DNA of 56,618 nucleotides from Pseudonocardiales bacterium (GCA_025966155.1 JAOPVO010000303.1:1-56618); one strand, 5' to 3'. Counted from the stretch's first letter, positions 6,029-29,932 are shown. The notes: a model not told the origin generated them from the sequence alone. Translations and numbers: made by a program.

Positions 6029-6038
6029 CTTGTGATCA

Positions 6039-6064: not shown

Positions 6065-6340
6065 GCTCGCGTTGCTGGGCAGGGTCATCACCGCACGGCA
6101 CAACTGAAGAACGACCCGTCCATCTTGGACACCCGCCTGGAGCCAGCGCTCCGGCGTGCCCGGCCCAGACGGCCGGTCCTCGGTAGTGGCGCTCGGGACG
6201 CAACGCTCCCGCCCGCTTCGATCGAAGACCGGCGCCAGACCACAGCCGGCGTACGTCGAGGCCCACGCTCGCGGGGCGGCACACCAGCGCGAACCCGGCC
6301 CACCGCCGGGCGCGTCGACGCACGAAAGAGGGAACTCTCC

Positions 6341-8918: not shown

Positions 8919-8939
8919 CCGACTTGGTAGCCAAGTCGG
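8919..8939. promoter_or_regulatory. 21-bp perfect palindrome (CCGACTTGG-TAG-CCAAGTCGG), candidate operator or 5'-UTR hairpin
   Basis: Read directly. It ends 22 nt upstream of the GTG of the sulfate-binding protein gene, just before the GGAGG SD, and is preceded by CGGTTCAACC (8911-8920). Confidence 0.5.
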
Positions 8940-8960
8940 AACTCTTTTGGAGGCAGTCCC

Positions 8961-11768: not shown

Positions 11769-11790
11769 TGGTCACAAGGGGACACCGCTG

Positions 11791-12777
11791 ATGGGTATCG
11801 AAGCACGCAATGTCGTCAAGCGATTCGGCAGCTTCACCGCTGTCGATGACGTCTCCCTGAATGTCACCAGCGGCAACCTGACGGCGCTGCTCGGCCCCAG
11901 CGGCGGAGGCAAGTCGACGCTGCTGCGGATCATCGCCGGCCTCGAGTCGCCCGATGGCGGCCGCATCCTCATCGACGGCGTCGATTCCACCGGCCTGCCG
12001 CCGCAGCGCCGCGGGGTGGGGTTCGTCTTCCAGCACTACGCCGCGTTCAAGCACCTATCGGTGTACCGGAATGTGGCGTTCGGGCTCGAGATCCGCCGCC
12101 GTCCGAAGGCCGAGATCCGCAAGCGCGTGCACGAGCTCCTGGAGCTCGTCCACCTCGAGCAGTTCGCCGATCGGCTGCCGTCGCAGCTATCGGGCGGCCA
12201 GCGGCAGCGGATGGCCCTGGCCCGGGCGCTGGCGGTTGAGCCCAAGGTGCTCCTGCTGGACGAGCCGTTCGGCGCCTTGGACGCCAAGGTGCGCAAGGAG
12301 CTTCGCGATTGGCTGCGCCGTCTGCACGACGAGGTGCATGTGACCACCCTGTTCGTCACGCACGACCAGGAGGAGGCGCTGGAGGTGTCCGACGAGCTCG
12401 TCGTGATCAACAACGGCCGCATCGAGCAGATCGGGTCGCCCAACGACCTCTATGATAAGCCGGCTAACGAATTCGTGATGGGCTTCCTGGGCCCGGTGAC
12501 GCAGCTGGGCGGGCGCCTGGTGCGCCCGCACGACATCGAGGTGCTGCTGACCGCCGAGCCCGGCACGATCGAGGCCACTGTGCAGCGCGTGCAGCGGGTC
12601 GGATTCGAGGTCCGGGTCGACTTCGCCACGCCCGCCTCCGCGGCCGTGACGACCGTGCAGCTGACGCGCGGGCAGGCCGATTCCCTCGGCATCCGCGACG
12701 GGCTGCGAATCTGGCTCCGGGCCGCGCCCAACGCATCGACGATCGTCGCCGCGCCGTCGCTAGCCAAGACGCTCTAG
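11791..12777 (+). CDS. cysA: sulfate ABC transporter ATP-binding protein CysA
   Basis: ATG 11791 with an AAGGGGA SD. Walker [10 protein letters not shown], signature LSGGQRQR, Walker B LLLDEPF, C-terminal TOBE-like domain. Confidence 0.92.
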
Positions 12778-12783
12778 GCCGCA

Positions 12784-13221
12784 ATGCAGATCTCCGCCCG
12801 ATCGGACTACGCGCTCCGCGCCATGCTCGTCCTCGCCGACCGGGTGCCGGAGTGGGTGAGCGTCACGGACCTGGCGCAGAACCAGCAACTGCCCCGACCG
12901 TTCCTGGAGCAGATCCTGGGCGAGCTGCGCCGGGCCCGGCTGGTGCGCAGCCAGCGCGGCGCCCGCGGCGGCTACACCATCGAGGGAACGGCCGACTCGA
13001 TCAGCCTCGGCTCGATCATCCGCGTTGTCGAGGGCACCCTGACCGAGGTGCGCGGGCGCCTGCCCGGCGATCTGGCCTATACCGGGCCGGCCGCTCTGCT
13101 GCCGCAGATCATGCTGGCCGTCGACGCCAGCGTCCGGTCGGTTCTCGACGACACGACGCTGGCCGACGTGATCAACGGCACGCTGCCCGCCCACGTTCAA
13201 TCGCTGCTAGCGGCGGGCTAG
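12784..13221 (+). CDS. Rrf2 family transcriptional regulator, cysteine-free (CymR-like)
   Basis: MQISARSDYALRAMLVLA... wHTH ...LVRSQRGARGGY. Only 6 nt after cysA, so probably co-transcribed. The 145-aa sequence contains no Cys. Confidence 0.9.
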   Translation: MQISARSDYALRAMLVLADRVPEWVSVTDLAQNQQLPRPFLEQILGELRRARLVRSQRGARGGYTIEGTADSISLGSIIRVVEGTLTEVRGRLPGDLAYTGPAALLPQIMLAVDASVRSVLDDTTLADVINGTLPAHVQSLLAAG

Positions 13222-13713
13222 GCGGTCCTCGGCGAGGGACAGCCGGCGGGACACATCGGCGCAGTCCTCGCAGATCGACTCGGGGATCACGTGCAGGCGC
13301 ATGAGGAAGCCGAACACGATGCAGCCGATGCACACGGCGAGGATCGACTCCAGCGCCGCGGCGATGGAGATCAGGACCAGAAGCACCAGCACGGCGGTGG
13401 TCTGCCCGAACGCGAAGTGCAGGATCGCCGCCGCTGTCGTGATCACCGCGCCCATGGCCTGGGCGAACCGCTTCGGCGGCCCGGGGACCAGGCGCGGTGC
13501 GCCCAGCTGCGGCGCGATCACCCGCGTCGCCAGCTGGCCCAGCGGGCTGAGCGTCGGCCCGGTCGCGGTGCGGGCGATGAAGCCGTACGCCAGCACCGCG
13601 GTCAGCCAGAGCTGGCCGGTCGCGACTGTCAGCACGCTAAGGATCAGCACCCCGGCGGCGACGGTGCGGGCGGCCTTCTCGTTGACCGGATTCGGGAATC
13701 CGATGATGCTCAT
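13207..13713 (-). CDS. DUF4395 family membrane protein
   Basis: Start MSIIGFPNPVNEKAAR (ATG at 13713). Four TM segments. C-terminal Cys pairs CIGC and CEDC. The upstream part of ORF 13207..13965 is Arg/Gly junk overlapping the rhodanese gene. Confidence 0.75.
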   Translation of the reverse strand: MSIIGFPNPVNEKAARTVAAGVLILSVLTVATGQLWLTAVLAYGFIARTATGPTLSPLGQLATRVIAPQLGAPRLVPGPPKRFAQAMGAVITTAAAILHFAFGQTTAVLVLLVLISIAAALESILAVCIGCIVFGFLMRLHVIPESICEDCADVSRRLSLAEDRLARR

Positions 13714-13736
13714 GGAGCCGACTCTAGAGTCCGCGC

Positions 13737-14273
13737 TCAGTTGCGCCCATGCACCGGCGCCGGGCTGTGCCGACGACGGTCGCGGGCGGCGAAGGCGTTG
13801 GCGGCATCCAGCAGCGGGACTGTCGCCTCGACGGCGGTCTCGCCGAAGCGGGTCGGCAGCTGCGCGGCCTGCCAGGCGTGGAATCCGCCCTCGATGTCGG
13901 TTGCCGTCACGCCGATCGAGTTCAGGGCATCGGCCGCCAGGGAGGATGTGTAGCCCTCCGAGCACAGCACGATCCAGGTCCGGCCGTCGGCCTGGGGAAG
14001 CCGGGCGGGGGAGTGCTGGTCAAGGCGCCATTCGAGGTGGTTGCGCTCGACGATGATGCTGCCGGGCACCTCGCCCTCGACGCGCCGCTGCCAGGACGGG
14101 CGGATGTCGACCAGCCCGGCTCCGGCGCCGACCGCGCGCCAGGCCTCGAGCGGCGTCATCCGCCGAAGCCGCGAGCGGGCGTCGTCGAGCAGTCCGTCGA
14201 TGCCCCGGAATCGGGCAGGCGCGCGGGCGATCGGCGGGCGGGGGAGGGGCGGACGCGTGAGGGCGGCGGTCAT
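13737..14273 (-). CDS. rhodanese-like single-domain sulfurtransferase
   Basis: Rhodanese fold with active-site loop CSEGYTS and GGFHAW. The ATG overlaps the stop of the upstream dioxygenase gene (ATGA at 14270-14273). Confidence 0.8.
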   Translation of the reverse strand: MTAALTRPPLPRPPIARAPARFRGIDGLLDDARSRLRRMTPLEAWRAVGAGAGLVDIRPSWQRRVEGEVPGSIIVERNHLEWRLDQHSPARLPQADGRTWIVLCSEGYTSSLAADALNSIGVTATDIEGGFHAWQAAQLPTRFGETAVEATVPLLDAANAFAARDRRRHSPAPVHGRN

Positions 14274-14833
14274 AGCAGCGGCTCGGCATTCTCGAGGGAG
14301 GCCTCGGGGTCATCGGTGTCGAGCTGCGCGATGCGCGTCAGCCCGCCGTCGTCGGCAAGGTCGTAGAAGGTCATGGAGGTCAGCGGCGGGGAGTAGGCGT
14401 GCACGCTGACCGCGGGCCGGGCCGAGGTGTTCAGCACGTCATGGACGTAGCGCGGCCCGAACGACACGGTCGCCCCGGCCTGGCGATCCCGGCGCTGAAG
14501 ATGCGCGGCGGTGCGGGGGCCGGCGAGGGAGGCCTCCTCGAGGGCGCCCTCCAGCACGGTGAATGCCCCGGACGAGCCGCCGTGGTCGTGCAGCTGGGTG
14601 CCCTGCGCCGGCATCCAGGTGATGAGCCAGACGTCGACGCGGTCGTCGCGGTACAGCCGCTGGTGCCATCGGCTCTGCGCATCGAAGCGCCACGGATGGG
14701 AGCCGGCGAGCAGCTCCTGCGCCAGGAAGCGGGTGTGGTCGCCCAGCTGGGCGACAGTCAGCGGACCCCGGGCGCTGGCGGTGCGGCTGGCAGTGCGCCG
14801 GATCCGGGCGGGCGAGCGGAGGGCGGTGGTCAC
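14270..14833 (-). CDS. cysteine dioxygenase type I family protein (cupin)
   Basis: 3-His iron site LHDHGG...YVHDV, SVHAYSPPL (Tyr157 region), Gly at the mammalian Cys93 position as in bacterial CDOs, and an Arg (HQRLY) aligning with substrate-binding Arg60. GTG 14833 has a GGAG SD 8 nt upstream; ATG 14917 lacks one. Confidence 0.8.
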   Translation of the reverse strand: MTTALRSPARIRRTASRTASARGPLTVAQLGDHTRFLAQELLAGSHPWRFDAQSRWHQRLYRDDRVDVWLITWMPAQGTQLHDHGGSSGAFTVLEGALEEASLAGPRTAAHLQRRDRQAGATVSFGPRYVHDVLNTSARPAVSVHAYSPPLTSMTFYDLADDGGLTRIAQLDTDDPEASLENAEPLL

Positions 14834-14876
14834 GGGTGATGCTCCAGTCAGGGGGTCGGCGAGGGAGTGGGGACGG

Positions 14877-14922
14877 CGGCACAGCGACAACACATCGCGG
14901 CACAGCGCATCGCGCAACAGCG
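14877..14922. repeat. imperfect direct repeats upstream of the dioxygenase operon
   Basis: CGGCACAGCG at 14877-14886 and 14898-14907 (21-bp period). Adjacent 15-mers CATCGCGGCACAGCG (14893-14907) and CATCGCGCAACAGCG (14908-14922) match at 13/15 positions. Confidence 0.5.
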
Positions 14923-15164
14923 GCTCATCGCCAGGGGACGCGTCCAGCTCACCTCGGGACCTCCTTTCCGCATCGCCGCGCCGTGCGCGGGTCGGGCGGC
15001 GCGGCGGTTCTCCGCCGGCAGCAGCTCTATCATCCGCGCCGGCGCGGCCGTTGTCTACTCCATCGCTAGATAAACTAGGCTTGGGCGCGGTTCAACCTGG
15101 GGCGTGTCCCGGGTGACACGCTCGCCCCCCGCGCAGGCGCGGCGGGCGCATCCCGAGGAAGATC

Positions 15165-15965
15165 GTGACCATGACTACGACAGACTCGCTGCCCGACCGC
15201 GCCGATGCGCCGCCGATCGCCTCCTGGGACGAGCCCGAGGGCCTGGCGGCGCGCGGGACGGTGATTGTCGTAGTCGGGCGGGGCGAGCACCCGGGCCTCT
15301 ACGAGCGGTTCGGGCGCCGCATCTCGGCCGACGCCTGGCGGGTCCGCGCCGTCGCCGACCCCATCACGGCGCCCGATGCCGCCGCCGAGCAGATCGCCGC
15401 GCTGCTCAGCGACCCCGACCTGCCCGAGCCCAAGGTCCTGGTGGGCTCGGATTCCGGCGCGGCCTATGTGGCCGCACGGGTGTCCGCCGGCGAGCTGGCC
15501 CCGGCCGGCGTCGTGCTGGTCGGCCTGCCGACCACCCCCTCCGCAGCGGACCGCGATGAGCTGCGCGACTGGGATGCCGAGCTGCTGGAGCGCACGTCCT
15601 GCCCGGCGCACCGGGCCCGCCTGACCGCCGACACCGGCATGCGCCGCGGCGCGATCGGCGGCGACGCCGTCCCGCAGGCCTGGCTGGAGGCCGTGGCGCC
15701 GAGCGCGTTGGGCGTGCCGGTGCTCGGCCTGCACGGCGCGGCCGACCGGATCAGCCCGCTGGCCGACGTCCGGGCGATCTACGCCCAGGCCCCGCAGGCC
15801 CGGCTGGTGAGCATCGTCGGGGGCAAGCACGACGCGCTCAACGACAAGACCCATCGCGTCGCGGCCGCGACGACGATGCTGTTCCTCGAGAGCCTCAAGG
15901 AGGGCCCGGACGTGCCCGAGATCGCCCATACCGAGGACCTCCGCGCGACGGGATCGGCTCTGTGA
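15165..15965 (+). CDS. alpha/beta hydrolase
   Basis: Nucleophile elbow VGSDSGAAY, later LHGAADRISP and GGKHDAL (Asp/His candidates). GAGGAAG SD before GTG 15165 (ATG 15171 is an alternative). Confidence 0.7.
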   Translation: MTMTTTDSLPDRADAPPIASWDEPEGLAARGTVIVVVGRGEHPGLYERFGRRISADAWRVRAVADPITAPDAAAEQIAALLSDPDLPEPKVLVGSDSGAAYVAARVSAGELAPAGVVLVGLPTTPSAADRDELRDWDAELLERTSCPAHRARLTADTGMRRGAIGGDAVPQAWLEAVAPSALGVPVLGLHGAADRISPLADVRAIYAQAPQARLVSIVGGKHDALNDKTHRVAAATTMLFLESLKEGPDVPEIAHTEDLRATGSAL

Positions 15966-16798
15966 GCGCCGTCCTGATCTCCGCGGCCGATCTGGCTCCC
16001 CGCGTCGCCGCCGGCGATGTTGTCCTGCTCGACGTGCGCTGGGCGCTGGGCGACCCCCACGGTCACCAGCACTACCTCGACGGCCACATCCCGGGCGCGG
16101 TCTTCGTCGACCTCGACACCGAGCTGGCCTCGCCGCCGTCGCCGAAGTCCGGGCGCCACCCGCTGCCGGCCATCGAGGACCTCCAGGCAGCCGCCCGCCG
16201 CTGGGGCATCAACGCAGGGTCAACCGTCGTCGCGTACGACAACGGCGGCGCGATGTCGGCATCGCGCTCGTGGTGGCTGCTGCGATGGGGCGGGCTGACC
16301 GATGTCCTGCTGCTCGACGGCGGCCTCGCGGCATGGATCTCGGCCGGCGGCGAGCTCGCCACCGACGACGTCGTCCCCGTTCCGGGCGATGTCGTGCTGA
16401 GCCCGGGCAATCTCCCGGTGCTCGACGCCGACGCGGCCGCCGGCCAGGCCGTCACCGGGATCCTGCTCGATGCCCGCGCGGGCGAGCGCTACCGCGGCGA
16501 GGTCGAGCCGATCGACCCGCGCGCCGGCCACATCCCCGGGGCGGTGAGCGCGCCGACCGGCGAGAACCTCGCCGCCGATGGGCGGTTCAAGTCCGCCGCG
16601 GAGCTGCGGGCGCGCTTCGCCGCCCTCGGGGCCACCGAGGACGCCCCCGTCGGGTCGTACTGCGGCTCCGGGGTGACCGCGGCCCACCAGGCGGCGGCAC
16701 TGGCCATCGCCGGCTTCGATGCCGTTGTATACCCCGGCTCGTGGTCGCAGTGGTCCAACGACCCCGCCCGCCCGGCCGCCACCGGCTCCGCGCCGTGA
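15962..16798 (+). CDS. sseA: 3-mercaptopyruvate/thiosulfate sulfurtransferase (tandem rhodanese domains)
   Basis: Two rhodanese domains. The active-site loop YCGSGVTA is the CG(S/T)GVT type typical of mercaptopyruvate sulfurtransferases. GTGA overlap with the hydrolase gene. Confidence 0.88.
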   Translation: MSAVLISAADLAPRVAAGDVVLLDVRWALGDPHGHQHYLDGHIPGAVFVDLDTELASPPSPKSGRHPLPAIEDLQAAARRWGINAGSTVVAYDNGGAMSASRSWWLLRWGGLTDVLLLDGGLAAWISAGGELATDDVVPVPGDVVLSPGNLPVLDADAAAGQAVTGILLDARAGERYRGEVEPIDPRAGHIPGAVSAPTGENLAADGRFKSAAELRARFAALGATEDAPVGSYCGSGVTAAHQAAALAIAGFDAVVYPGSWSQWSNDPARPAATGSAP

Positions 16799-18162
16799 CA
16801 GGGGACCCGCTGGGGCAATTGCGGGCGGCTCTGCCGACAGGCCGCGTCAGCACCGACCCCGCGGACCTCGGCGCGAACACCTTCGACCGATCCGGCTGGA
16901 TCCCCGACGGATCGGGCCCGATCGGCGTCGTGTTCGCCCGGGACGCCGCCGATGTACAGGCGACTATGCGATTCGCGTCCGAGCACGGCGTGCCCGTCGT
17001 CGTCCGCGGCGCGGGCACCGGCCTGTCCGGCGCGGCCACCGCGACGGCGGGGTCCCTGGTACTCAGCCTCGCGCGGATGGACCGCATCGTCAGCCTCGAC
17101 GCCGACGACGAGACGATCGTCGTCGAGCCGGGCGTCATCACCGCCGCCGTCGACGCCGCGGCGGCCGAGCACGGCCTGCGCTACGCCCCGGATCCCGGAA
17201 GCGTAGAGATCTCGACGATCGGCGGGAACATAGCCACCAATGCCGGAGGCCTGCGCTGCGCCAAGTACGGCGTGACCCGGGACTCTGTGCTGGGCCTTGA
17301 TGTCGTGCTGGCCACCGGCGAGCTGATCAAGACCGGCCACCGGACGGTCAAGGGCGTGACCGGCTACGACCTGACGGGCCTGTTCGTCGGGTCCGAGGGG
17401 ACGCTGGGCGTCATCGTCGCCGCGACGCTGCGGCTGCGGCCCCTGCCGACGAGCACCAGCACGATCGCCGCGTTCTTCCCGACATTCGACGATGCCGCCA
17501 AGGCCAGCCTGGCGATCACCCGAGCCCGGGTGCAGCCGGCCATCCAGGAGATCGTCGACGCCACCGTGCTGCGGGCCATCGATGCCGCCGAGGGCACCGA
17601 CTTCGCGACCCGGGGCGAGGCTTTCCTGCTCGTCCAGACCGACGGCGCCGGGGCCGCTGCGGAGGCCGGGATCATCGTCGAGGTGCTCTCGGGCCTCGCC
17701 GACTCCGTCGAGGTCACTCAGGATCCGGTCGAGGCGCAGGTCCTCCTGCGGGCCCGGCGCCTGGCGCTGCCGAGCCTGGAGCTGATCGGGCGGGTGCTCA
17801 TCGAGGACATCGCGGTGCCGCGCTCGCGGATGCCCGAGGCCGTTGCCGGGATCCAGGCGATCGCCGCCCGGCACGGCGTCACCATCGCCACGCTCGCGCA
17901 CGCCGGCGACGGCAACCTCCACCCGATCATTGTGGTCGACCCCGATGCCCCGGAGATCCCCCAGGTCGCGTGGGACGCGGCAGGGGAGATCTTCGCCCTC
18001 GCCCTGCGCCTGGGCGGCACGCTCACCGGCGAGCACGGGATCGGCGTGCTCAAGCGCGCCTGGGTCGAGCAGGAGCTCGGCAGCGACAATGTCGCGCTGC
18101 AGAAGCGGCTGCGGGTGCTGTTCGACCCGGCCGCCATCCTCAACCCCGGCAAGGTCTTCTAG
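16795..18162 (+). CDS. FAD-binding oxidase (GlcD / D-lactate dehydrogenase family)
   Basis: GTG 16795 overlaps the sseA stop (GTGA). PCMH FAD domain (VVVRGAGTGLSGAA, TGYDL, GSEGTLGV). C-terminal GEHGIG...LFDPAAILNPGKV. Confidence 0.88.
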   Translation: MTGDPLGQLRAALPTGRVSTDPADLGANTFDRSGWIPDGSGPIGVVFARDAADVQATMRFASEHGVPVVVRGAGTGLSGAATATAGSLVLSLARMDRIVSLDADDETIVVEPGVITAAVDAAAAEHGLRYAPDPGSVEISTIGGNIATNAGGLRCAKYGVTRDSVLGLDVVLATGELIKTGHRTVKGVTGYDLTGLFVGSEGTLGVIVAATLRLRPLPTSTSTIAAFFPTFDDAAKASLAITRARVQPAIQEIVDATVLRAIDAAEGTDFATRGEAFLLVQTDGAGAAAEAGIIVEVLSGLADSVEVTQDPVEAQVLLRARRLALPSLELIGRVLIEDIAVPRSRMPEAVAGIQAIAARHGVTIATLAHAGDGNLHPIIVVDPDAPEIPQVAWDAAGEIFALALRLGGTLTGEHGIGVLKRAWVEQELGSDNVALQKRLRVLFDPAAILNPGKVF

Positions 18163-18187
18163 GCGACGGTTCCAGCAGATAGTCGGC

Positions 18188-19252
18188 TCAGGTTAAGGTC
18201 AGCTCGAAATCGAGCAGCGGGATGACCTCGGCGCCGAATCGATCCACCGTCTCGTGGTAGTCGTCGAAGCTCATCAGCACCCCGCCCGTGCCCTGGACCT
18301 GAGCGATCTCGTTCAGGGCAGTGGCGACGGTGCGCGGCGATCCCGCGAGAAGGCCGTTGGTGATCGCGGCGCTGTTGAGCGCGCCGAGCTGGGCGGCTGC
18401 AGCGGCCGACGACGTCCCTGTCTTGTCGATCTCGTAGTTGCCGGCCATATGCGCCACCGCAACGGCATCGCTGCCAGCGTTGTACGCATCGATCTTGCTC
18501 TGGGCCAGTGCGTCGGTGTCGTCGATGACGATCTGGCGCAGCACTATGGATCGGACATCGCGCCCGGACGCCGCGCAGGCCGCGTCGAGCTCGGCGTTCG
18601 CGGCCCGGATGCCCTCGGGGCCGCCGGGGGCGTCGGTGAAGTTGAAGTCGGCGAACTGCGCCGCGAACTCGCGGCCGCGCGGCGACGACCCGGCCGACAC
18701 GATGTCGATATGCGAGGCCGGGGTCGGGCCGAGCTGGCAGTCCTCGAGCTGGAAGTACTTGCCGGAGAAGTCCGAGCGGCCGTCGGCCCAGAGCTCCTTC
18801 ATGACCTGCACGTACTCACTCGCATAGTCGTACCGCTCGGCGAAGTAGTGGTCCCCGGGCCAGAGGCCCATCTGGGCATACTCGGCCCGGTTCCAGCCGG
18901 ACACGATGTTGATGCCGAACCGCCCGGGGGCGACATCGTCGATGGTCGCGGCCATGCGCGCGACCACCGCCGGGTGCAGGGTCAGCACCGCAACCGAGGC
19001 GTACATCTTCATGCGCTCGCTGACCGCGGCCAGCGCCGACATGATCGTGAAGGTCTCCAGGGTGTAGTCCCAGAACTTCGTCTCGCCCCCGAAGCCGCGG
19101 AACTTGACCATGCACAGCGCGAAGTCGAAGCCCATCGCCTCGGTGCGCGCGACGATGCTGCGGTTCAGGGCGAAGGTCGGCATGTACTGCGGGGAGGCCT
19201 TGGAGGGGATCCAGCCGTTGTTGCCTGTGGGGATGAACACGCCGAGACGCAT
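18188..19252 (-). CDS. luciferase-like (LLM) flavin-dependent monooxygenase, RutA-like
   Basis: ATG 19252 with an AAGGAG SD. The N-terminal 200 aa (GVFIPTGNNGW...PQYMPTFALN...FDFALCMVKFRGFGGETKFWD...VARMAATIDDVAPGRFGINIVSGW..EYAQMGLWPGDHYF..RYDY..EYVQV) closely track my memory of pyrimidine monooxygenase RutA. An HMM search is needed to confirm. Confidence 0.8.
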   Translation of the reverse strand: MRLGVFIPTGNNGWIPSKASPQYMPTFALNRSIVARTEAMGFDFALCMVKFRGFGGETKFWDYTLETFTIMSALAAVSERMKMYASVAVLTLHPAVVARMAATIDDVAPGRFGINIVSGWNRAEYAQMGLWPGDHYFAERYDYASEYVQVMKELWADGRSDFSGKYFQLEDCQLGPTPASHIDIVSAGSSPRGREFAAQFADFNFTDAPGGPEGIRAANAELDAACAASGRDVRSIVLRQIVIDDTDALAQSKIDAYNAGSDAVAVAHMAGNYEIDKTGTSSAAAAAQLGALNSAAITNGLLAGSPRTVATALNEIAQVQGTGGVLMSFDDYHETVDRFGAEVIPLLDFELTLT

Positions 19253-19293
19253 GACGCTCCTTAGCTGGCTGCAGGAAATCTGGGACCGGCGCC

Positions 19294-19323
19294 GGGCCGG
19301 CACGGACTAGCCGTGCCGGACCC
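19294..19323 (-). promoter_or_regulatory. intercistronic stem-loop between the SBP gene and the RutA-like gene
   Basis: ccggcacgg-actag-ccgtgccgg is a perfect 9-bp stem, extendable to 12 bp with one bulge (ggg...accc). It lies 16 nt after the SBP stop. Confidence 0.5.
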
Positions 19324-19338
19324 GGCGCCGAGGGGTGG

Positions 19339-20991
19339 TCAGGAGGAGGGCTTGAGCTCCCAGTACCGGACGCCGATCTCGGGGGAGTAGGCGATTCCGG
19401 TGATGCCCTTGCTCACGACAACGGTGCGCCCGGTGATGACCAGCGGGATGAACGAGGCGTCGGCCGCGGCCTGCGCCTGCAGGTCCTTGTACGCCGCCTG
19501 CCGCTCGGGGCTGTCGGGCAGGAACTGGTACTGGTTGGCCTTGGCATCGAACGAGGCATTGGCGAACCGCGGGTAGTTCAGTGCGCCGCCGCCGTGGGAG
19601 TAGAAGCTGACCGGCGACTTCGGGTCATCGAGGTAGATGCTGAGGTTGAACATGACCATCTTCGGGTCCGACACCGACGCACCCGTGGCGGCCGTGCCGC
19701 GCTTGATGATGAGGTCGAACATCGCCGCCGGGGTCTGCGGCTGCAGGGTGACGGTGATGCCGATCTGCTTGAGGGCGGTCTGGATCAGGATCGCCATGTC
19801 CTCATATGCGGGCTCGGCATTGCTGTACACCAGCGGCACATTGATCGACGGGTTGCCGGCCTCGGCCATGAGGGCCTTGGCCTTCGCCAGATCCGTGCTG
19901 TACGTCGACCACGCGTCGTCGTAGCCCGGGGCCTTGAGGTTGACGTAGGACAGCGACCGCTCGGCGCGGCCGAAGAAGACGTTCTTCACCAGATCGTCGT
20001 AGGGGATCGCCGTGGCGACGGCCTGACGGACCTTCTCGTTGGTGAACGGCCCGCTGTCCTCAGCCAGCTGGAGGTGGATGAAGTCCGGCGTGGCCTGGTG
20101 ATCCACCGTCAGGCCGGCGTCATCGAGGTCGTTGAGCTCCTTCTGGGTCAGGCCGAATAGGCCGACGTTGACCTGCCCGCTGCGCACGAGGGAGGCGATG
20201 TTGCCGTTCGCCACGATTCGGACGGTGACCGTCTTGTAGGCGGGGTCGCCGGACCACAGGCCGGGAACGGACTTGAGGATGACCTGCTGGCCGGGTGTGC
20301 GGGAGTCGATGTAGTACGGGCCGGTGCCGGCTGCGTTGGACCGGAGCCAGTCGTTGGCGTTGGGGTCGGTGGCCGTCGCATGCTGCTTGGCAGTCACGGA
20401 ATCGACGATCCCGTAGTTGGGGAATCGCATGGTGGCCAGCAGGGTCGGCGTCGCCTGGACGGGATTGCCCGCCACATCGGTGAAGTCCATCTTGAAGGTG
20501 TGCTCGTCGACCACCGAGAACTGGCTGGGCTTCTGGAGCCCGCCGTTGCTGAAATCGGTGGCGCCGCCCAGGGCCATCGAGCGGGTGTAGCTGAACAGGA
20601 CGTCCGCGGCGGTCAGGGGATTGCCGCTCGGGTAGAACTTCACGTCCGTCCGGAGGTGGAACACCGCCGAGGTGCCGGCCATGTCGTAGGACTCGGCCAG
20701 GGAGCTCTCCGCGTCCAGCCCGCTCCATACGAGGGAGCCGTTGGCATCCGGGGTGAACTTGTACTCCAGCAGGCGCTGGTAGATGTTCATCGTGAGCTCT
20801 TTGTCCTGGTCGGTGGAGACATTCCCAGGGTCGAGAGTCGAGACATCGGAGGGCCAGGCGGTGACGAGGGAATCCCCCGACGCCGCGGCGCTGGAATCGG
20901 ACCCGCCCGACGAGCAGGCCGAGACGATGGCGAGCGCGGCGACGGCAAGGACCGTCGGCACGGTCACGCGCAGTCTTCTGAACATGGACAT
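19339..20991 (-). CDS. ABC transporter substrate-binding lipoprotein, family 5 (peptide/nickel/opine type)
   Basis: ATG 20991 (MSMFRRLRVTVPTVLAVAALAIVSACSSGG lipobox) with an AGGAGAA SD. About 550 aa, with the typical cluster-C SBP size and composition. Confidence 0.85.
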   Translation of the reverse strand: MSMFRRLRVTVPTVLAVAALAIVSACSSGGSDSSAAASGDSLVTAWPSDVSTLDPGNVSTDQDKELTMNIYQRLLEYKFTPDANGSLVWSGLDAESSLAESYDMAGTSAVFHLRTDVKFYPSGNPLTAADVLFSYTRSMALGGATDFSNGGLQKPSQFSVVDEHTFKMDFTDVAGNPVQATPTLLATMRFPNYGIVDSVTAKQHATATDPNANDWLRSNAAGTGPYYIDSRTPGQQVILKSVPGLWSGDPAYKTVTVRIVANGNIASLVRSGQVNVGLFGLTQKELNDLDDAGLTVDHQATPDFIHLQLAEDSGPFTNEKVRQAVATAIPYDDLVKNVFFGRAERSLSYVNLKAPGYDDAWSTYSTDLAKAKALMAEAGNPSINVPLVYSNAEPAYEDMAILIQTALKQIGITVTLQPQTPAAMFDLIIKRGTAATGASVSDPKMVMFNLSIYLDDPKSPVSFYSHGGGALNYPRFANASFDAKANQYQFLPDSPERQAAYKDLQAQAAADASFIPLVITGRTVVVSKGITGIAYSPEIGVRYWELKPSS

Positions 20992-20998
20992 GGTTCTC

Positions 20999-22066
20999 CT
21001 AGAGACGATTGGTTGGGGGGATCGCGGTGAGGGCGGGGTTGTCCTCGATCGCCGCAATGGCGGGCGGGCACGCTGCGACGTGCTGCTGGAGGACGCCAGG
21101 CGTCGCGGGCGGCTGGGCGGCAACTGGCTGGGGCACGAGCAGGAGGGGCGGTTGCCGCTCCCGGCATTGCGGCTGCACGAGCGGGCACCGCCCGGCGAGG
21201 CGGCATCCGCGCGGCAGATCGACCGGGCTGGGGATCTCGCCGGAAAGGACGAAGCGCTCCTTCACCGCTCCGTACTCGGCGACCGGCGCGGCGGATAGCA
21301 ATGCCCGCGTATAGGGGTGGGTGGGCGCTGAGAACACCGCCTCGGTCGTGCCCTCCTCGACGACCAGCCCCAGGTACATGACCAGGACCCGATCAGCGAT
21401 CTTGCGCACCACCTGCAGATCGTGGGTGATGAATAGATAGGCGACATTGCGTTCCCGCTGGATCCTCTGCAGCAGCTCGAGGATCTGCCCGCGCACCGAT
21501 ACGTCCAGCGAGGATGTCGGCTCATCGAGGATGATGACCTTCGGGTCGATGGCCAGGGCCCGGGCGATGCCGATGCGCTGCCGCTGGCCGCCCGACAGCT
21601 CGCGGGGGTAGCGGTCCAGATGCATGGGGTCCAGGCCGACCTCGCGGATGAGCTCCTCGGCGCGCTCCCGCCGAGCCGCGGCCGACAGCTGCAGGTGCAG
21701 CCGCATCGGCTCCTCGATGATGTCGCGGATGCGCATCCGGGGATTCAGCGAGGAATTCGGGTCCTGGAACACCATCTGGAGGTCCTTGTACGCCCGCGAC
21801 ATGTCCTTCCACCCCAGTCCGCCGAGGGTGCGGCCGTCGAGCTGGACGGATCCCGCGGTGGGCTCGATCAGGCGGGTGAGGCACCGGGCGACCGTCGACT
21901 TGCCGGACCCGCTCTCGCCCACCAGCGCGACCGTCTCGCCCGGGGCGATCGACAGATCCACGCCATCGACGGCAGTGAGGATCCCGGCGTGCCCGCGGGC
22001 CCGGATGGTGAACTCCTTGCGCAGGCCCAGGACGTGCAGCACCGGGTGGGACACGATGGCGGTCAT
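20999..22066 (-). CDS. ABC transporter ATP-binding protein (DppF/OppF-like)
   Basis: Walker A GESGSGKST, signature LSGGQRQR, Walker B IILDEPTS, oligopeptide-type C-terminal Cys-rich tail (PRGCRLAGRCPLVQPQC). Confidence 0.9.
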   Translation of the reverse strand: MTAIVSHPVLHVLGLRKEFTIRARGHAGILTAVDGVDLSIAPGETVALVGESGSGKSTVARCLTRLIEPTAGSVQLDGRTLGGLGWKDMSRAYKDLQMVFQDPNSSLNPRMRIRDIIEEPMRLHLQLSAAARRERAEELIREVGLDPMHLDRYPRELSGGQRQRIGIARALAIDPKVIILDEPTSSLDVSVRGQILELLQRIQRERNVAYLFITHDLQVVRKIADRVLVMYLGLVVEEGTTEAVFSAPTHPYTRALLSAAPVAEYGAVKERFVLSGEIPSPVDLPRGCRLAGRCPLVQPQCRERQPPLLLVPQPVAAQPPATPGVLQQHVAACPPAIAAIEDNPALTAIPPTNRL

Positions 22067-23787
22067 GCGGCCTCCACTAGTCGGCTCGCGGCCAGCAGCG
22101 CCGCCGTGTACGGGTCCTGCGGGTTGGTGAAGATCTGCTGGCAGGAGCCGGTTTCCCGCACCCGTCCGTCGCGCATAACCACGACGTCCTGGCAGGTCTC
22201 GGCTACTACGCCCAGATCGTGGGTGATCAGGCAGGCCGTAAGTCCCTCAGTCCGCACCAGGTCGACGATCAGCTTCATGACGTCGGCTTGGATCGTGACA
22301 TCGAGGCCAGTGGTGGGCTCGTCGAGGACCAGCAGCTCGGGCTCGCTGATCAGCGCGAGAGCCAGCATGACCCGCTGGGCCATCCCGCCGGAGAACTCAT
22401 GCGGGTACTGGCGCATGCGTCGCTCCGGCTCCGGGATCTGGACCCGCTCGAGCATGGCGATGGCAATGGCCCGTGCCTCGTTCCGGCTCACTTTTCGGTT
22501 GGCGCGGCAGGCATCGATGAGTTGATTGCCCACAGTGAACACGGGATTCAGCGACCCGCGGGCATCCTGGAACACCAGGCTGATCCGCGTGCCGCGCACC
22601 CGACCGTAGGACGCAGGCTCGTCGGCGAGGAGGTCGACGCCGTCGAACACCAGCTGGCCGCCAGTGCGGATGAACCCCTCCGGGGCGAGGCCGACGATGG
22701 ATAGGGCACTCAGTGTCTTGCCGCTGCCGGTCTCCCCGACGATCGCCGTCATGACCCCTCGGCGCAGCCCGAAGCTGACGTCATGGAGGACGGGGCGCAC
22801 GCCTTCGGGTCCGGCGAACCCGCCGCTGAAGCCGATGACCTCGAGAATCCGATCCGGTGCGGGCGTCGACTCCGGCCGCGCGGCCGCAGCCGTCGCCATG
22901 GCGGTCGCCGCGCCGCGGCGGGCACGGCGCAGCAGCCGGGCCGACAGCACCGATGATCCCGGGCTGTCCTCGCTCAGGCCGTCGCCGATCAGATAGAACG
23001 ACGCGGACAGCAGCAGCAGCGCGATGCCGGGGAAGCCCGAGATCCACCACTCCCCGGACAGGATCGAGTCCTGCCCGCGGGAGATCATCGAGCCCCACTC
23101 GGCGCTGCCCGGCTCGATGCCCAGGCCGATGAAGCCCAGACTCGCCACGATGATGGCGACCCAGGAGGCATTGATCGAGGAGAACGCAATCAGCGGGCGC
23201 ATGCTGTTGGGCAGCAGATGCCGGAACAGCACCCGGGACGGGCGGTTGCCGATCACCTTCGCGGCCTCGGCGAACTGCCAGTTCTTCTTCGAGAGGATCT
23301 CGGCGCGCACGAGGCGCACATAGTTAGGTATGCCCAGAATCGATACCACGACGATCACGTTGACGATCCCGGACCCGACCGCCGCCACCATGAGCATCGC
23401 CAGGAGCAGGGCCGGGAACGCCTGGACGATCTCCATGAGGCGCATGAGGATGGTGTCGAGGATGCCGCCGTAGAAGCCGGCCAGCGCACCGAGCGCCGTC
23501 CCGATCACGAAGGCGATGACGACCGCCGAGAGCGTGATGCCGAAGTCCGTCGTCGCGGCGCTGAGGGTCCGGGAGAAGACATCGGAGCCGACGCGGTCCG
23601 TGCCGAACAGATAGTCGCGGCTGGGGGCGGCGTACGGCGGGCCCACACCGGCGGTATCCGGGTCGTACGGCGCCCAGAGCCGGGTCGTCGCCGAGACGAC
23701 CGCCATCACCGCCACGATGCCGGCGCCGAGCCAGACGGAGAGGGGCGTCGAGCGCCGGCGGCGGCGGGCCGGCTGCAGGGTGCTCAT
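22063..23787 (-). CDS. fused ABC permease (DppC-like) and ATP-binding (DppD-like) protein
   Basis: The N-terminal ~290 aa form a 6-TM BPD permease. After a linker the C-terminal ~270 aa carry Walker A GETGSGKT, FSGGMAQR and LVLDEPTTGLD. This is a single uninterrupted ORF with ATGA overlaps at both ends. Confidence 0.88.
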   Translation of the reverse strand: MSTLQPARRRRRSTPLSVWLGAGIVAVMAVVSATTRLWAPYDPDTAGVGPPYAAPSRDYLFGTDRVGSDVFSRTLSAATTDFGITLSAVVIAFVIGTALGALAGFYGGILDTILMRLMEIVQAFPALLLAMLMVAAVGSGIVNVIVVVSILGIPNYVRLVRAEILSKKNWQFAEAAKVIGNRPSRVLFRHLLPNSMRPLIAFSSINASWVAIIVASLGFIGLGIEPGSAEWGSMISRGQDSILSGEWWISGFPGIALLLLSASFYLIGDGLSEDSPGSSVLSARLLRRARRGAATAMATAAAARPESTPAPDRILEVIGFSGGFAGPEGVRPVLHDVSFGLRRGVMTAIVGETGSGKTLSALSIVGLAPEGFIRTGGQLVFDGVDLLADEPASYGRVRGTRISLVFQDARGSLNPVFTVGNQLIDACRANRKVSRNEARAIAIAMLERVQIPEPERRMRQYPHEFSGGMAQRVMLALALISEPELLVLDEPTTGLDVTIQADVMKLIVDLVRTEGLTACLITHDLGVVAETCQDVVVMRDGRVRETGSCQQIFTNPQDPYTAALLAASRLVEAA

Positions 23788-24809
23788 GCGCGCACCCGCG
23801 GGTCGATGCTGGAATAGGCGAGGTCGAGGATCAGGTAGATGACGACGTAGAGGATCGCGGCGTAGAGGACGAAGCCCTGGATCGCCGGGAAGTCCGATTG
23901 CTGGATGGCATCCAGGGCGTACTGCCCGACGCCGGGCCAGGCGAAGATGCCCTCGACGAGGACCGCGCCGGAGAAGGCGAAGCCGATGACCCCGGCGAGC
24001 ATGGTCAGCACCGGGAGCAGGACATTCTTGAATGCGTACCGGAACCAGATCGTGCGCTTAGGGATATTCATGGCGATCGCCGTCCGGATGTAGTCCGCGC
24101 GCAGCGCCTCGATCATGGCGCTGCGCACCGTGCGCGCGATCGGGGCGAAGACCGCGATGCCCAGGGTGACGACAGGCAGGGCGAGCTGCGCGGCGGCGTG
24201 GCGGGCCAGCCCGAACCGGCCGGTGAGCAGCGAGTCGACGACGACGAACGAGGTAATCCTCGGCGGCGGGTTGACCCCGATCGGCAGGCGGCCCACCGGG
24301 CCAGGGGCCAGGCCCATCTTGACGAAGAAGATCCACAGCAGCATGAGGCCGATCCAGAACTGCGGCATGGCCAGTCCGCCCACAGTGAGGAACCGCAGGA
24401 TCTTGTCCAGGACACTGCCGCGGAGGACGGCGGACAGGATGCCCACGGCGAATCCCAGCAGCGTGCCGCCGATGACGGCATACGTCGCGAGCTCGAATGT
24501 GGCGGGGAGCCTGGACGTCAGGTCGGAGGTCACGGGCTGCCCGGTCGAGAACGAGGTCCCGAGCCGGCCGCGCACGAGGTCGGCGAGGAACTGGCCGTAC
24601 TGGGCCGGGATCGACTTGTCCAGGCCCAGGTTGGCCCTGATCGCCGCCCGCGTCTCCAGGTCGGCCTGTGGCGACACGTAGAGGTTCGTCGGATCGGGCG
24701 ACACGATGCGGGCCAGGACGAAGGTCAGGGTGACGACGCCCAGGATGACGGCGAGGCTCCCGGCCACTCGCACCGCGATCGGTCGCGCCCTATCCATCAG
24801 CGCGCTCAT
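23784..24809 (-). CDS. ABC transporter permease (DppB-like)
   Basis: ATG 24809 (MSALMDRARPIAVRVAGSLAVILGVVTLTFVLARI...). The upstream 146 codons of ORF 23784..25247 are Arg/Gly junk overlapping the amidohydrolase gene. Confidence 0.88.
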   Translation of the reverse strand: MSALMDRARPIAVRVAGSLAVILGVVTLTFVLARIVSPDPTNLYVSPQADLETRAAIRANLGLDKSIPAQYGQFLADLVRGRLGTSFSTGQPVTSDLTSRLPATFELATYAVIGGTLLGFAVGILSAVLRGSVLDKILRFLTVGGLAMPQFWIGLMLLWIFFVKMGLAPGPVGRLPIGVNPPPRITSFVVVDSLLTGRFGLARHAAAQLALPVVTLGIAVFAPIARTVRSAMIEALRADYIRTAIAMNIPKRTIWFRYAFKNVLLPVLTMLAGVIGFAFSGAVLVEGIFAWPGVGQYALDAIQQSDFPAIQGFVLYAAILYVVIYLILDLAYSSIDPRVRA

Positions 24810-26218
24810 CAATCGACCGCCGTGCCCCGCGCCACCGAGGGGTCGAGGGTGCGGCGCAGCAGTTGCCCGCCGGTCGAGTCGTCGACGAGGACGCCGCCCT
24901 CGATGACCACGCGACCGCCGAGGATCGTCGCGACCGGCCAGCCATAGACCTCGCGCCCGCCCCACGGGGTGTAGTCGCCCTCGTGCATGTCGGTGGGGTC
25001 GATGACCCGGCGATCCTCGGGATCCAGGATCACGAAGTCGGCATCCGATCCGACCAGGACGGCGCCCTTGCGCGGGTAGAGCCCGAAGATCTTGGCGGCG
25101 TTCTCCGAGGTGACCTCGACCAGCCGCTTCAGGCCGAGGTCGCGCTTGCGGACCATCTCGGTGTACAGCAGCGCCATCTTCGGCTCGACCCCCGTGACGC
25201 CGCCGAACGTGCCGTCGATAGTGCGCGAACGATCCTTCTCCTCCCATAGGCAGCAGACGCCGTCGGTGCCGAAGGTGTGGATGTGCCCGTCGGCGATCCC
25301 GGCCCAGATCGCCTCGACGTCCTCCTCGAACTTGATCGAGGGGTAGATGTGGTACTTATGGCCATCGGGCTCCGCGTACGACGCGGCGGTGGTGAGGGTG
25401 AGCACCGCCAGGGTCTCGGCGTAGATGGGCTGGCCCGTGGCCCGGTACTGGCGCACGGCATCGACGCCGGTCTTGGCCGTCACGTGATGCATATAGACCG
25501 CCGCGTTGTCGATATGGGACGCCAATTGAAGAACGTGCCGGAACGACAGATCCTCGGAGAGCGTCGTGTGCACGTCCGGCATGTACACGATGTCGGTCTT
25601 GCCGGCCTCGAAATGCTTCCGGTACTGATGCATGACCAATTCGTCGTCCTCGGCGTGGATATCAACGATGCCATTCGCCGCCGCCGTGCGGGTCAAGATC
25701 TCGAATAATGTCCCGGTCGACGTCCGGAATCCCTCGAATTGCGTGGGGGTGATATTCGTGGTGAAGATCTTGAAGCTCGGGAAGCCTTGCTCGATCAACG
25801 CCGGGATCTGGTCTATGTGCTCGTCCGACGCCTGGTCGGACATCACGATATGGAACCCGTAATCGGTGTAGGAGGTCCCATCCCACTCGGCGATCATGTC
25901 GTCGAGAGTGGTCTGGGGGGAGTGCTCGCCAGGCCAGATGAAGTCGATGAACGTGGTCATGCCGCCATAGAGCGCGGCCAGTCCGATGACATCGCGGCCC
26001 AGGACATTGGGCATGCCGCCCGGCGCGTTCGTGTGGACGTGCGGATCGACGCCGCCCGGGAGCACCAGCTTGGCCGAGGCGTCGACGGTCCGCGCGGCCT
26101 CGGGCAGGGCGCCTGGGGCGACCAGGTGCGTGATGAGTCCCTCGGTGACCCCGACGTCCAGGGCCGACGGCCCCTCGGGTGTAACCACTATGCCGCCGAC
26201 AATGGCGAGATCAAGCAT
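24809..26218 (-). CDS. cyclic amidohydrolase, dihydropyrimidinase/D-hydantoinase family
   Basis: Metal ligands are present: GGVDPHVHT (HxH), SFKIF (carbamylated Lys), IHAEDD, YMHHVT, FGTDGV (Asp). 469 aa. GGAAGG SD. Confidence 0.85.
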   Translation of the reverse strand: MLDLAIVGGIVVTPEGPSALDVGVTEGLITHLVAPGALPEAARTVDASAKLVLPGGVDPHVHTNAPGGMPNVLGRDVIGLAALYGGMTTFIDFIWPGEHSPQTTLDDMIAEWDGTSYTDYGFHIVMSDQASDEHIDQIPALIEQGFPSFKIFTTNITPTQFEGFRTSTGTLFEILTRTAAANGIVDIHAEDDELVMHQYRKHFEAGKTDIVYMPDVHTTLSEDLSFRHVLQLASHIDNAAVYMHHVTAKTGVDAVRQYRATGQPIYAETLAVLTLTTAASYAEPDGHKYHIYPSIKFEEDVEAIWAGIADGHIHTFGTDGVCCLWEEKDRSRTIDGTFGGVTGVEPKMALLYTEMVRKRDLGLKRLVEVTSENAAKIFGLYPRKGAVLVGSDADFVILDPEDRRVIDPTDMHEGDYTPWGGREVYGWPVATILGGRVVIEGGVLVDDSTGGQLLRRTLDPSVARGTAVD

Positions 26219-26384
26219 GGATTGCCTTCCGGGACGAGTGCGGTTGCTTATGCGACTCAGTCTGGGAACGCAATATTTCGGCTGAAGTGCGTACTCGGTT
26301 GCCGCAAGATGTCATTCATGCGGGAACATTTCCGGAATGTAAACGGCATTAGGCGCGTGAATGCCCGATAGGCCGAGCGCGACA

Positions 26385-26404
26385 AATGCGCGCGGCCGCG
26401 CATT
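26385..26404 (-). terminator. hairpin after the gntR-family gene (8-bp GC-rich stem, 4-nt loop)
   Basis: aatgcgcg-cggc-cgcgcatt, followed on the minus strand by TTTG. A second 6-bp hairpin, ggcggg-ctg-cccgcc, lies at about 26422-26436. Confidence 0.4.
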
Positions 26405-26443
26405 CGCGTTTCGGCATCGAAGGGCGGGCTGCCCGCCGGTGTG

Positions 26444-27217
26444 TCAGGTGATGCGTCGGGCGGATCGGTGGTTGGGGGGATTCGACGGCAATGAGGGGAA
26501 GACGGCGCTCTGCACGCCGGTCAGGTGGGTCCGCATGGAGCGCTCGGCCTGCTCGGCGTCGCGCTCGCGCAGTGCGGCGATGACGGCTCGATGCTCGGCG
26601 ACCTGCTCGAGGCGCGCGGCCGTCGAGCGGAGCGCCTGCTCGTTGACCAGGACCCACAGCGGATGGTGCTCGATGCTGACCAGTTGGCCGATGAACTCGG
26701 CCAGCAGGGCATTGCCGGAGTAGCCGGCCAGTCGCGAGTGGAACGCGAAGCCGGTCACCGCGAAGCGGCGGTAGTCGCCGCTGGAGCCAGCCTCCTCGGC
26801 CTCGTCGACCAGGTCCGCCAGCACGGTGATCTGCTCGTCGGTGATCCGCAGCGCCGCGAGGCGGCTGGTCGTCGGCTCGAGGGAGATGCGAGCCTCGATC
26901 AGATCGCGCGGCTCGCCGCTCAGCAGCGCCTCGGATTCGTCGATGCGGGTCGAGCTGGCCGGGGACACGTAGACGCCGTCGCCGTGGCGGATCGTGACTG
27001 CCCCGACGAGCTCGAGCGCGAGCAGGGCCTCCCGGGCGGTGGTGCGGGAGACGCCGTGCGCGGCCGCGAGCTCGCGATCGCCGGGCAGTCGGCTCATCGG
27101 CGGGTACACGCCCCCGTTGATGGAGGCGAGGACGGCGCTGGCGATGTCCATGAACCGCCGCTGCGCAGCGAGCGCCGGCGGGCTCGCGGGGACCTGGTCC
27201 AACCTCTCCATTGGCAC
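26444..27217 (-). CDS. GntR family transcriptional regulator (FadR/FCD subfamily)
   Basis: wHTH LPGDRELAAAHGVSRTTAREALLALELVGAVTIRHGDGVYV plus a helical FCD-type C-terminal domain. Start is GTG 27217 or ATG 27211, with no clear SD. Confidence 0.9.
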   Translation of the reverse strand: MPMERLDQVPASPPALAAQRRFMDIASAVLASINGGVYPPMSRLPGDRELAAAHGVSRTTAREALLALELVGAVTIRHGDGVYVSPASSTRIDESEALLSGEPRDLIEARISLEPTTSRLAALRITDEQITVLADLVDEAEEAGSSGDYRRFAVTGFAFHSRLAGYSGNALLAEFIGQLVSIEHHPLWVLVNEQALRSTAARLEQVAEHRAVIAALRERDAEQAERSMRTHLTGVQSAVFPSLPSNPPNHRSARRIT

Positions 27218-27260
27218 AAGTTAGACCACTGGTCCAACCTGTGTCCACCACTGGTCCAAC
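27192..27260. promoter_or_regulatory. three direct copies of CTGGTCCAAC (two as ACCACTGGTCCAAC) in the gntR / rrf2 divergent region
   Basis: Copies at 27194-27203, 27229-27238 and 27251-27260. The 14-mers start at 27225 and 27247 (22-bp period) and have a palindromic ACCA-C-TGGT core. The first copy lies inside codons 3-6 of the gntR-family gene. Confidence 0.55.
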
Positions 27261-27330
27261 ACGGTTCCGGCGTCCACCCGGCGAGCGCGCCGTTCAGACC
27301 TTTCCTGCCGTTATAAGCGACAATGCAGCG

Positions 27331-27840: not shown

Positions 27841-29932
<2,092 letters not shown>

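Follow-up and report, generated by a model that had tools for sequence, protein, structure and literature searches.

A conserved GntR-headed actinobacterial operon pairing a RutA-family oxygenase with an atypical dihydropyrimidinase-like hydrolase and a Dpp-type importer

What could a bacterium gain by placing in a single operon a relative of the hydrolase that opens reduced pyrimidine rings, a relative of the oxygenase that cleaves oxidized ones, and an importer of the dipeptide type? This question is raised by seven co-directional minus-strand genes located at positions 18188-27217 of a 56,618-nucleotide (nt) stretch of Pseudonocardiales bacterium DNA (GCA_025966155.1 JAOPVO010000303.1:1-56618, hereafter the window). 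They encode a GntR regulator, a cyclic amidohydrolase (AH), the components of a Dpp-type ATP-binding cassette (ABC) importer with its family-5 substrate-binding protein (SBP), and a luciferase-like monooxygenase (LLM) of the RutA family. The operon is real and conserved in actinobacteria. Tentatively, and as a plausible reading, we propose that the operon is induced by a ligand and serves to scavenge nitrogen from an imported cyclic ureide or imide of a pyrimidine-like type, and that it is related to the Rut system in a shortened, hybrid form. The novelty lies in the conserved gene combination and in the atypical hydrolase, the components and the likely chemistry coming from known families. 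An initial annotation of the window, made from the sequence alone, had described this layout and named the nearest families of both enzymes, and these points stand; the family membership that it implied, the uniqueness of the pairing and the idea of a sulfur-containing substrate do not.

Open reading frame (ORF) listing and profile searches returned the gene content, order and dense packing first described, and a re-reading of the sequence placed every overlap and gap where it had been reported. The stop codon of the AH gene and the ATG of the DppB gene share one nucleotide (TGATG, at 24809), the two following junctions are 4-nt overlaps (23784-23787 and 22063-22066), and the DppF and SBP genes are separated by 7 nt (20992-20998). 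Longer spacers, of 225 nt and 86 nt (19253-19338), precede the AH and LLM genes, respectively. A convergent gene for a GlcD-like flavin adenine dinucleotide oxidase, which ends at 18162, borders the cluster on one side, and a divergent gene for an M16 peptidase, which starts at 27841, on the other.

The gene neighbourhood, whose conservation the initial annotation had proposed to check, is indeed kept in Nakamurella, Pseudonocardia, Modestobacter and metagenome contigs. The seven genes have the same order in Nakamurella leprariae (locus L001) and Pseudonocardia sp. CNS-004 (L008), and a soil metagenome contig (L005) carries the six structural genes in this order with the GntR gene placed after the LLM gene. 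A Modestobacter metagenome-assembled genome (MAG; L034) has a partial cluster, in which the LLM fragment is 90% identical to the window protein. The AH and LLM genes are adjacent within a larger amidase-rich island in two loci (L002 and L036); their junction shares a base in one metagenome contig, where a divergent flavin mononucleotide (FMN) reductase gene adjoins; and they are kept together in a rearranged copy of the cluster lying beside a urease operon (L006). None of the orthologous loci holds RutB-G. In L006 (5133-9710), the urease operon is complete (ureABC plus accessory genes), and the copy of the cluster that it adjoins includes two RutA-like genes, a dihydropyrimidinase-like (DHP-like) AH and a cytosine-deaminase-like enzyme.

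Does the LLM gene belong to this operon, or is it a separately transcribed neighbour, functionally unrelated to the genes upstream? The 86-nt gap in front of it, with a strong hairpin (the full spacer folds at -50.8 kcal/mol), would speak for such a separation. We nevertheless consider it very improbable, since the gene keeps its position after a comparable hairpin across genera, since it adjoins the AH gene in loci devoid of the transporter, and since most AH homologues of at least 52% identity are linked to a RutA-like gene while those of 41-47% identity never are. Hairpins of differing sequence occupy the same SBP-LLM position in L001, L005, L034 and the Cellulomonas locus described below (L118). 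Elements that stabilize the mRNA or partially terminate transcription after the binding-protein gene are a known feature of ABC operons, and by analogy the hairpin fits an element of this kind.

The partner enzymes of both classical routes of pyrimidine breakdown are missing, as the initial annotation had noted and as searches of the window and of the orthologous loci confirm. Over the whole window, no homologue of RutB, RutC, RutD, RutE, RutF or RutG was found at E<=1e-3, and neither a dihydropyrimidine dehydrogenase nor a ureidopropionase nor a carbamoylase is encoded in the cluster or by the genes next to it. The same annotation knew of no characterised system of this composition, and we found no paper on the gene set in the searched literature, which omits some journals.

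How close, then, is the LLM to RutA? On the RutA profile TIGR03612 it scores 441.2 bits, below the curated cut-off of 498.3; on the same profile E. coli RutA reaches 726 bits, alphaproteobacterial RutA proteins 620-633 bits, and six relatives from the actinobacterial clade 375-441 bits. It scores much lower against the other subfamilies (168 bits for SfnG and 89 for SsuD), and the closest solved structures are the E. coli RutA entries (E 5e-109), so that RutA, rather than SsuD or SfnG, is its nearest relative, as had been proposed. The description of the protein as reading almost like RutA was, by contrast, overstated, the overall identity to the E. coli enzyme being 46%. In a neighbour-joining tree of 156 homologues, drawn without bootstrap support, the LLM falls in an actinobacterial clade apart from that of E. 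coli RutA. All examined members of this clade have an amidohydrolase-superfamily enzyme in their cluster, either an AH or a cytosine-deaminase-like protein, and none of these clusters contains RutB-E. An exact-sequence look-up of the LLM protein returned no record.

The reaction of the RutA equivalog is the cleavage of the N3-C4 bond of uracil or thymine, giving ureidoacrylate, and few enzymes besides RutA are known to employ a flavin-N5-peroxide. The oxygen pocket of RutA beside the flavin N5 is reported to be formed by L65, T105, N134, V136 and F224, with W139 bordering the substrate cavity (PMC7662398, PMC10005588). The LLM keeps all six positions (L65, Ser for T105, N134, V136, W139 and F224). 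The six residues, with Ser or Thr at 105, are also kept across 31 AH-linked sequences, 6 sister sequences and nearly all of 15 sequences of the RutA clade. On the other hand, about 20 positions distinguish the actinobacterial clade from the RutA clade, and Glu292, at the edge of the cavity, is not retained. The conserved pocket and the clade-specific differences, taken together, suggest a RutA-type chemistry acting on a substrate that may differ from that of RutA.

The hydrolase shows a similar combination of resemblance and distance. The AH is 34% identical to the D-hydantoinase 1NFG, the best solved hydantoinase, and scores 288.8 bits on TIGR02033 (D-hydantoinase/dihydropyrimidinase; cut-off 393.25) and 294.3 bits on NF009941 (cut-off 647), as compared to 183 bits for allantoinase and about 165 bits for ErtD and dihydroorotase. 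The dihydropyrimidinase/hydantoinase family is thus its nearest one and all the metal ligands are present, as initially described. In the dihydropyrimidinase of Pseudomonas aeruginosa (PaDHPase) these ligands are His59, His61, Kcx150, His183, His239 and Asp316 (PMC8860565); H60, H62, K150, H188, H245 and D319 of the AH align with them to form a complete binuclear site, and the six residues are invariant among 25 relatives. The substrate-binding residues conserved in dihydropyrimidinases (DHPases) are Tyr155, Ser289 and Asn337 in PaDHPase numbering, of which Ser289 and Asn337 touch the substrate through their main chain (PMC8860565). None of the three is kept in the AH, where they are replaced by Asn155 (followed by a 5-residue insertion), Tyr292 and Gly340. 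As the serine and asparagine contacts are made by the main chain, more weight attaches to the loss of the Tyr155 side chain.

The profile tests proposed in the initial annotation therefore bear out the resemblance to RutA and to the hydantoinases and not membership in either equivalog: both enzymes score under the cut-offs, and the AH is devoid of the DHPase triad. Another explanation of the locus would be that a true uracil/thymine RutA stands beside a true dihydropyrimidinase, two standard pyrimidine routes being placed side by side. The best family and Protein Data Bank (PDB) matches are indeed RutA and D-hydantoinase/dihydropyrimidinase, and JGI labels relatives of the two enzymes 'pyrimidine oxygenase' and 'dihydropyrimidinase'. 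We find this explanation quite improbable, in view of the sub-cut-off scores (RutA-clade proteins reach 620-726 bits), the separate clade of the LLM, the replacement of Tyr155 and Asn337 in the AH, and the absence of RutB-G, dihydropyrimidine dehydrogenase and ureidopropionase.

The more distant homologues of the AH bring no substrate clue. Those of 41-47% identity form a large family of proteins of about 476 residues, whose neighbours in 78 metagenome loci are mixed (branched-chain-type ABC systems, short-chain dehydrogenases/reductases, TctC, CoA-transferases, xanthine-dehydrogenase-like enzymes, asparaginase and NMT1-like binding proteins); a RutA-like gene is found in none of the 78. NMT1/THI5-like binding proteins also lie beside RutA-like or DHP-like genes, in Frankia (L003, 11169-12077) and in seven of 80 AH-family loci (for example L095, 3435-4445). 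ThiY, a member of this binding-protein family, binds a pyrimidine.

Is the pairing of such an oxygenase with such a hydrolase peculiar to this operon? It is not: it belongs to a broader pattern of RutA-family enzymes accompanied by various hydrolases other than RutB. In Cellulomonas sp. S1-8 (L118) and Frankia (L003), an LLM 57-58% identical to that of the window is encoded with a GntR regulator of the FCD type and a closely similar Dpp system (DppB 57-60% and SBP 44-46% identical). The hydrolase of these two loci is a cytosine-deaminase-like amidohydrolase of 411-415 residues, far under the cut-off of its own family, and the Cellulomonas operon, which starts with a Flavin_Reduct gene, encodes an FmdA-like amidase and an FMN reductase in addition. 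A metagenome contig (L119, 1531-6632) encodes a Flavin_Reduct protein, a RutA-like LLM, two PuuE-like proteins of the deacetylase family, an FMN_red protein and a second RutA-like LLM; it exemplifies a third clade of RutA relatives, one that is frequent in soil metagenomes. Finally, a proteobacterial MAG (L022, 9386-16528) encodes RutF, RutA, an AtzE-like amidase, a CobW-type GTPase, a DHP-like AH and a second AtzE-like amidase. Its RutA passes the TIGR03612 cut-off (619.6 bits), its AH scores 314.8 bits on TIGR02033 and is 40% identical to that of the window, and RutB is absent from the cluster, an apparent further variant of Rut judging from its gene content. The recurrence of such pairings in these four loci makes the window operon one well-conserved form among several. 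The forms differ in their hydrolase, which is cytosine-deaminase-like in L118 and L003, PuuE-like in L119, and AtzE-like together with a DHP-like AH in L022. They also differ in that L118, L119 and L022 carry flavin reductases, unlike the window cluster. We found no characterisation of any of these variants.

RutA-family paralogues are also found in number elsewhere. Devosia indica (L031, 7799-12472) has four in tandem, accompanied by a RutF-like gene and a weak RutB-like one, and Methylocapsa and Pseudooceanicola have three copies each (L018, L027). In Alphaproteobacteria, the family has expanded beyond the classical rut operon.

Which compound could be imported? The importer is a complete one of the Opp/Dpp/Nik type (PF00496, two PF00528 and two PF00005 domains, and PF08352 on DppF). 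None of its proteins reaches a substrate-specific equivalog cut-off, including, for the SBP, those of the peptide-binding equivalogs. The similarity of the SBP to named binding proteins is weak (NikA, 78 bits; PDB 5isu, E 8e-24), and an attempt to assign its ligand by sequence comparison was abandoned, as it gave weak matches alone (NikA, Lmo0135, HbpA, AapF, AgaA). The type of importer, together with the fact that RutA chemistry amounts to an amide cleavage (PMC7662398), could point to a cyclic dipeptide (diketopiperazine) or a modified peptide whose amide bonds are cleaved by both enzymes. This seems to us quite doubtful. Besides the lack of a peptide-binding match for the SBP, the partner hydrolases of the LLM clade are all of the nucleobase/ureide type (DHP-like, cytosine-deaminase-like or PuuE-like), and the neighbours of the cluster include a urease in one relative and, in another, a xanthine/uracil permease gene.

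One trait of the window importer is not shared by the family. The DppC and DppD parts are joined in one frame by a linker of about 45 residues, as had been annotated; they are encoded by separate genes in L034, L001, L005, L118 and L003, so that the fusion is peculiar to this window rather than a general trait of the cluster. The pattern is more fragmented in L008, and in L117 one alignment covers two called genes. In the nearest relative (L034) DppC and DppD lie in different frames, and the fusion could be either real or the product of a frameshift or a sequence error in the assembly.

How would the proteins work together? In the reading that we prefer, an FCD-type GntR protein would repress the genes until its ligand is bound, and the compound would be imported by the Dpp-type system with its lipoprotein. 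The LLM would then open an amide or ureide C-N bond of the ring by the flavin-N5-peroxide chemistry of RutA, with reduced FMN (FMNH2) supplied by a flavin reductase whose gene would lie elsewhere in the genome. The AH would carry out a further hydrolytic C-N cleavage, in the place taken by RutB in E. coli or by the carbamoylase in the reductive route, and ammonia would be released. Both the substrate class and this order of the enzymes are inferred. In the Rut pathway, RutA/F and RutB suffice to free both ring nitrogens, RutC, RutD and RutE serving to speed up or detoxify later steps. This sufficiency, the nucleobase/ureide-type partner hydrolases, the urease and the xanthine/uracil permease favour nitrogen scavenging from a pyrimidine-like ureide.

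Several points weigh against this scheme. We know of no enzyme of the cyclic-amidohydrolase family that acts on a linear ureide such as ureidoacrylate, and the RutB-like role of the AH is proposed by analogy. A family-5 SBP would be odd for a free nucleobase and suggests a larger or different ligand. The score of the LLM below the RutA cut-off and its roughly 20 clade-specific positions leave room for a substrate that is not pyrimidine-like. No flavin reductase homologue was found over the whole window at E<=1e-3. The hairpin before the LLM gene could terminate transcription, and in two loci with an AH of 55-65% identity no RutA-like gene is near.

The two enzymes could also act in the reverse order. 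An imported hydantoin, dihydropyrimidine or cyclic imide would be opened by the AH, giving an N-carbamoyl or half-amide acid, from which the LLM would oxidatively remove the carbamoyl or amide group, standing in for the carbamoylase or ureidopropionase. The complete metal site of the AH, its place as first structural gene and the lack of a carbamoylase in the cluster agree with this order; moreover, N-carbamoyl amino acids are about the size of a dipeptide and would suit a Dpp-type importer. The proposal meets three difficulties: a RutA-family enzyme acting on a linear ureide is not known, the AH has lost the residues that bind hydantoins and dihydropyrimidines, and the deaminase-like enzyme that takes its place in the sister clusters cannot open a ring. 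We therefore hold this order to be unlikely. Its boldest form, in which the LLM is an oxidative decarbamoylase or deamidase that directs its flavin-N5-peroxide at the linear product of the AH and so converts a cyclic ureide to an amino acid without a carbamoylase, seems rather improbable. If true, the reaction would be of a class new to this family of flavoenzymes, and its substrate could be a natural product of peptide size brought in by the Dpp-type importer.

A further possibility is that the enzymes do not act in sequence at all, and work independently on the oxidized (uracil-like) and the reduced (dihydro- or hydantoin-like) forms of a single imported class of compound, housekeeping enzymes finishing the breakdown. 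Known relatives of both enzymes attack the same type of ring amide bond, and the downstream enzymes are not encoded in the cluster. Yet the AH and LLM genes are translationally coupled and directly adjacent in minimal modules, which points to a sequential action, and the ring-opened product of either enzyme would have to be processed further by a ureide hydrolase, for which there is no gene here. Parallel entry thus appears rather unlikely.

Compared with the E. coli Rut system (rutABCDEFG with RutR), the proposed scavenging operon shares a RutA-family FMNH2-dependent monooxygenase with the same oxygen-pocket residues, a compact catabolic layout with a dedicated repressor, the probable release of nitrogen from a ring ureide and, in related clusters, a flavin reductase. 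It differs by an LLM that is 46% identical to RutA, below the cut-off and in another clade; by the absence of RutB-G, with a binuclear-metal AH where the isochorismatase-type RutB would be expected; by a five-component Dpp-type ABC importer instead of the RutG permease; and by a regulator of the GntR/FCD type instead of the TetR type. With the reductive pyrimidine and hydantoin systems it has in common the cyclic-amidohydrolase family, with its four histidines, one aspartate and a lysine that is carbamylated in known members. It departs from them in the low identity (34%) and sub-cut-off score of its AH, in the replacement of Tyr155, Ser289 and Asn337, in the absence of dihydropyrimidine dehydrogenase, carbamoylase, racemase and NCS1 permease, and in the coupling of the AH to an oxygenase.

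The locus is thus a conserved self-contained module of a regulator, an importer and two enzymes, and could offer a route to a new substrate for flavin-N5-peroxide chemistry. Should the AH take the role of RutB, this would be a non-orthologous replacement in pyrimidine/ureide catabolism by an enzyme of the dihydropyrimidinase fold. Soil Actinobacteria and Alphaproteobacteria have many RutA relatives that are not part of a canonical rut operon, and we found no characterised ones among them; the labels 'pyrimidine oxygenase', 'dihydropyrimidinase' and 'dihydroorotase' carried by many relatives of the two enzymes would have to be corrected. The features of the cluster are collected in Table 1.

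Table 1. Features of the gene cluster, listed in the direction of transcription.
Feature	Position in the window	Strand	Profile matches and remarks
Candidate operator, three GGTTGGACC(AG) copies around the GntR start	27194-27262	-	Direct repeats D2, D4
GntR/FCD regulator	26444-27217	-	PF00392 52.5 bits, PF07729 88.1 bits; ATG 27211 is the likelier start
GntR-AH intergenic region, 225 nt, presumed promoter/operator region of the structural genes	26219-26443	-	
AH, atypical dihydropyrimidinase/hydantoinase-like, Amidohydro_1, binuclear-metal cyclic-amidohydrolase family	24809-26218	-	
DppB/NikB-type ABC permease	23784-24809	-	PF19300 and PF00528
DppC-type permease fused in frame to DppD-type ATPase	22063-23787	-	PF00528 (residues 96-270), PF00005 (residues 334-493)
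DppF/OppF-type ATPase	20999-22066	-	PF00005, PF08352 (oligo_HPY); NF008453 356.6 bits
Family-5 substrate-binding lipoprotein (SBP)	19339-20991	-	PF00496; signal peptide ending IVSAC (lipobox)
GC-rich hairpin, 20 base pairs, between the SBP and LLM genes, without U tract	19286-19331	-	
RutA-family luciferase-like monooxygenase (LLM), predicted FMNH2-dependent, outside the RutA equivalog	18188-19252	-	PF00296 178.6 bits

How the operon would be controlled can be approached from its first gene. The regulator belongs to the FadR (FCD) subfamily of the GntR family, both the N-terminal winged helix and the C-terminal FCD domain being matched. The gene had been correctly identified in the initial annotation; its true start is more probably the ATG at 27211, which, with the M-x-R-x-D-Q that it opens, is conserved in two orthologous loci (L001 and L008). 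A -10-like hexamer, TANNNT, lies 6 nt upstream of this ATG in the window, L001 and L008, a spacing which suggests that the GntR transcript may be leaderless. The GGTTGGACC repeats found around the start are a candidate operator for GntR autoregulation, with related elements (GGTCGGACC / GGTCAGACC) at the matching place in L008 and L001. Repeats and hexamer together suggest a leaderless and autoregulated transcript. The regulator may also control the structural genes. The spacer between the GntR and AH genes carries GAATG/CATTC inverted repeats (I7 and I11), and no 9-mer is shared among the spacers of the four loci compared (window, L001, L005 and L008). A GlnR box in front of the AH gene was considered and rejected, the sole match (26328-26342) having one mismatch and the whole window containing 32 such matches as compared to 57 in shuffled sequence.

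The remainder of the window is a core actinobacterial block, with rpsO, an Actino-pnp leader RNA, pnp, pepR, dapB, thyX, dapA, ftsK, miaB, pgsA, cinA, lhr and glyA. About 18 kb (8931-27217) separate pnp from the M16 peptidase gene (pepR), an interval occupied by a sulfate ABC system, Rrf2, DUF4395, cysteine dioxygenase, rhodanese and GlcD-like oxidase genes and by the cluster itself. Of these, the sulfate ABC, Rrf2, cysteine dioxygenase and rhodanese genes do not accompany the orthologous clusters, whose neighbours are unrelated, so that the link to a sulfur-containing heterocycle, raised as a speculation in the initial annotation, finds no support. The G+C content of the cluster (0.66-0.69) is lower than that of its flanks (0.72-0.74), and the cluster may be acquired DNA. 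The leader RNA (6172-6233, 65.8 bits) lies between rpsO and pnp (5630-8545). As the longest ORF call for pnp, from 6032, overruns it, the true start of pnp should be located downstream of 6233.

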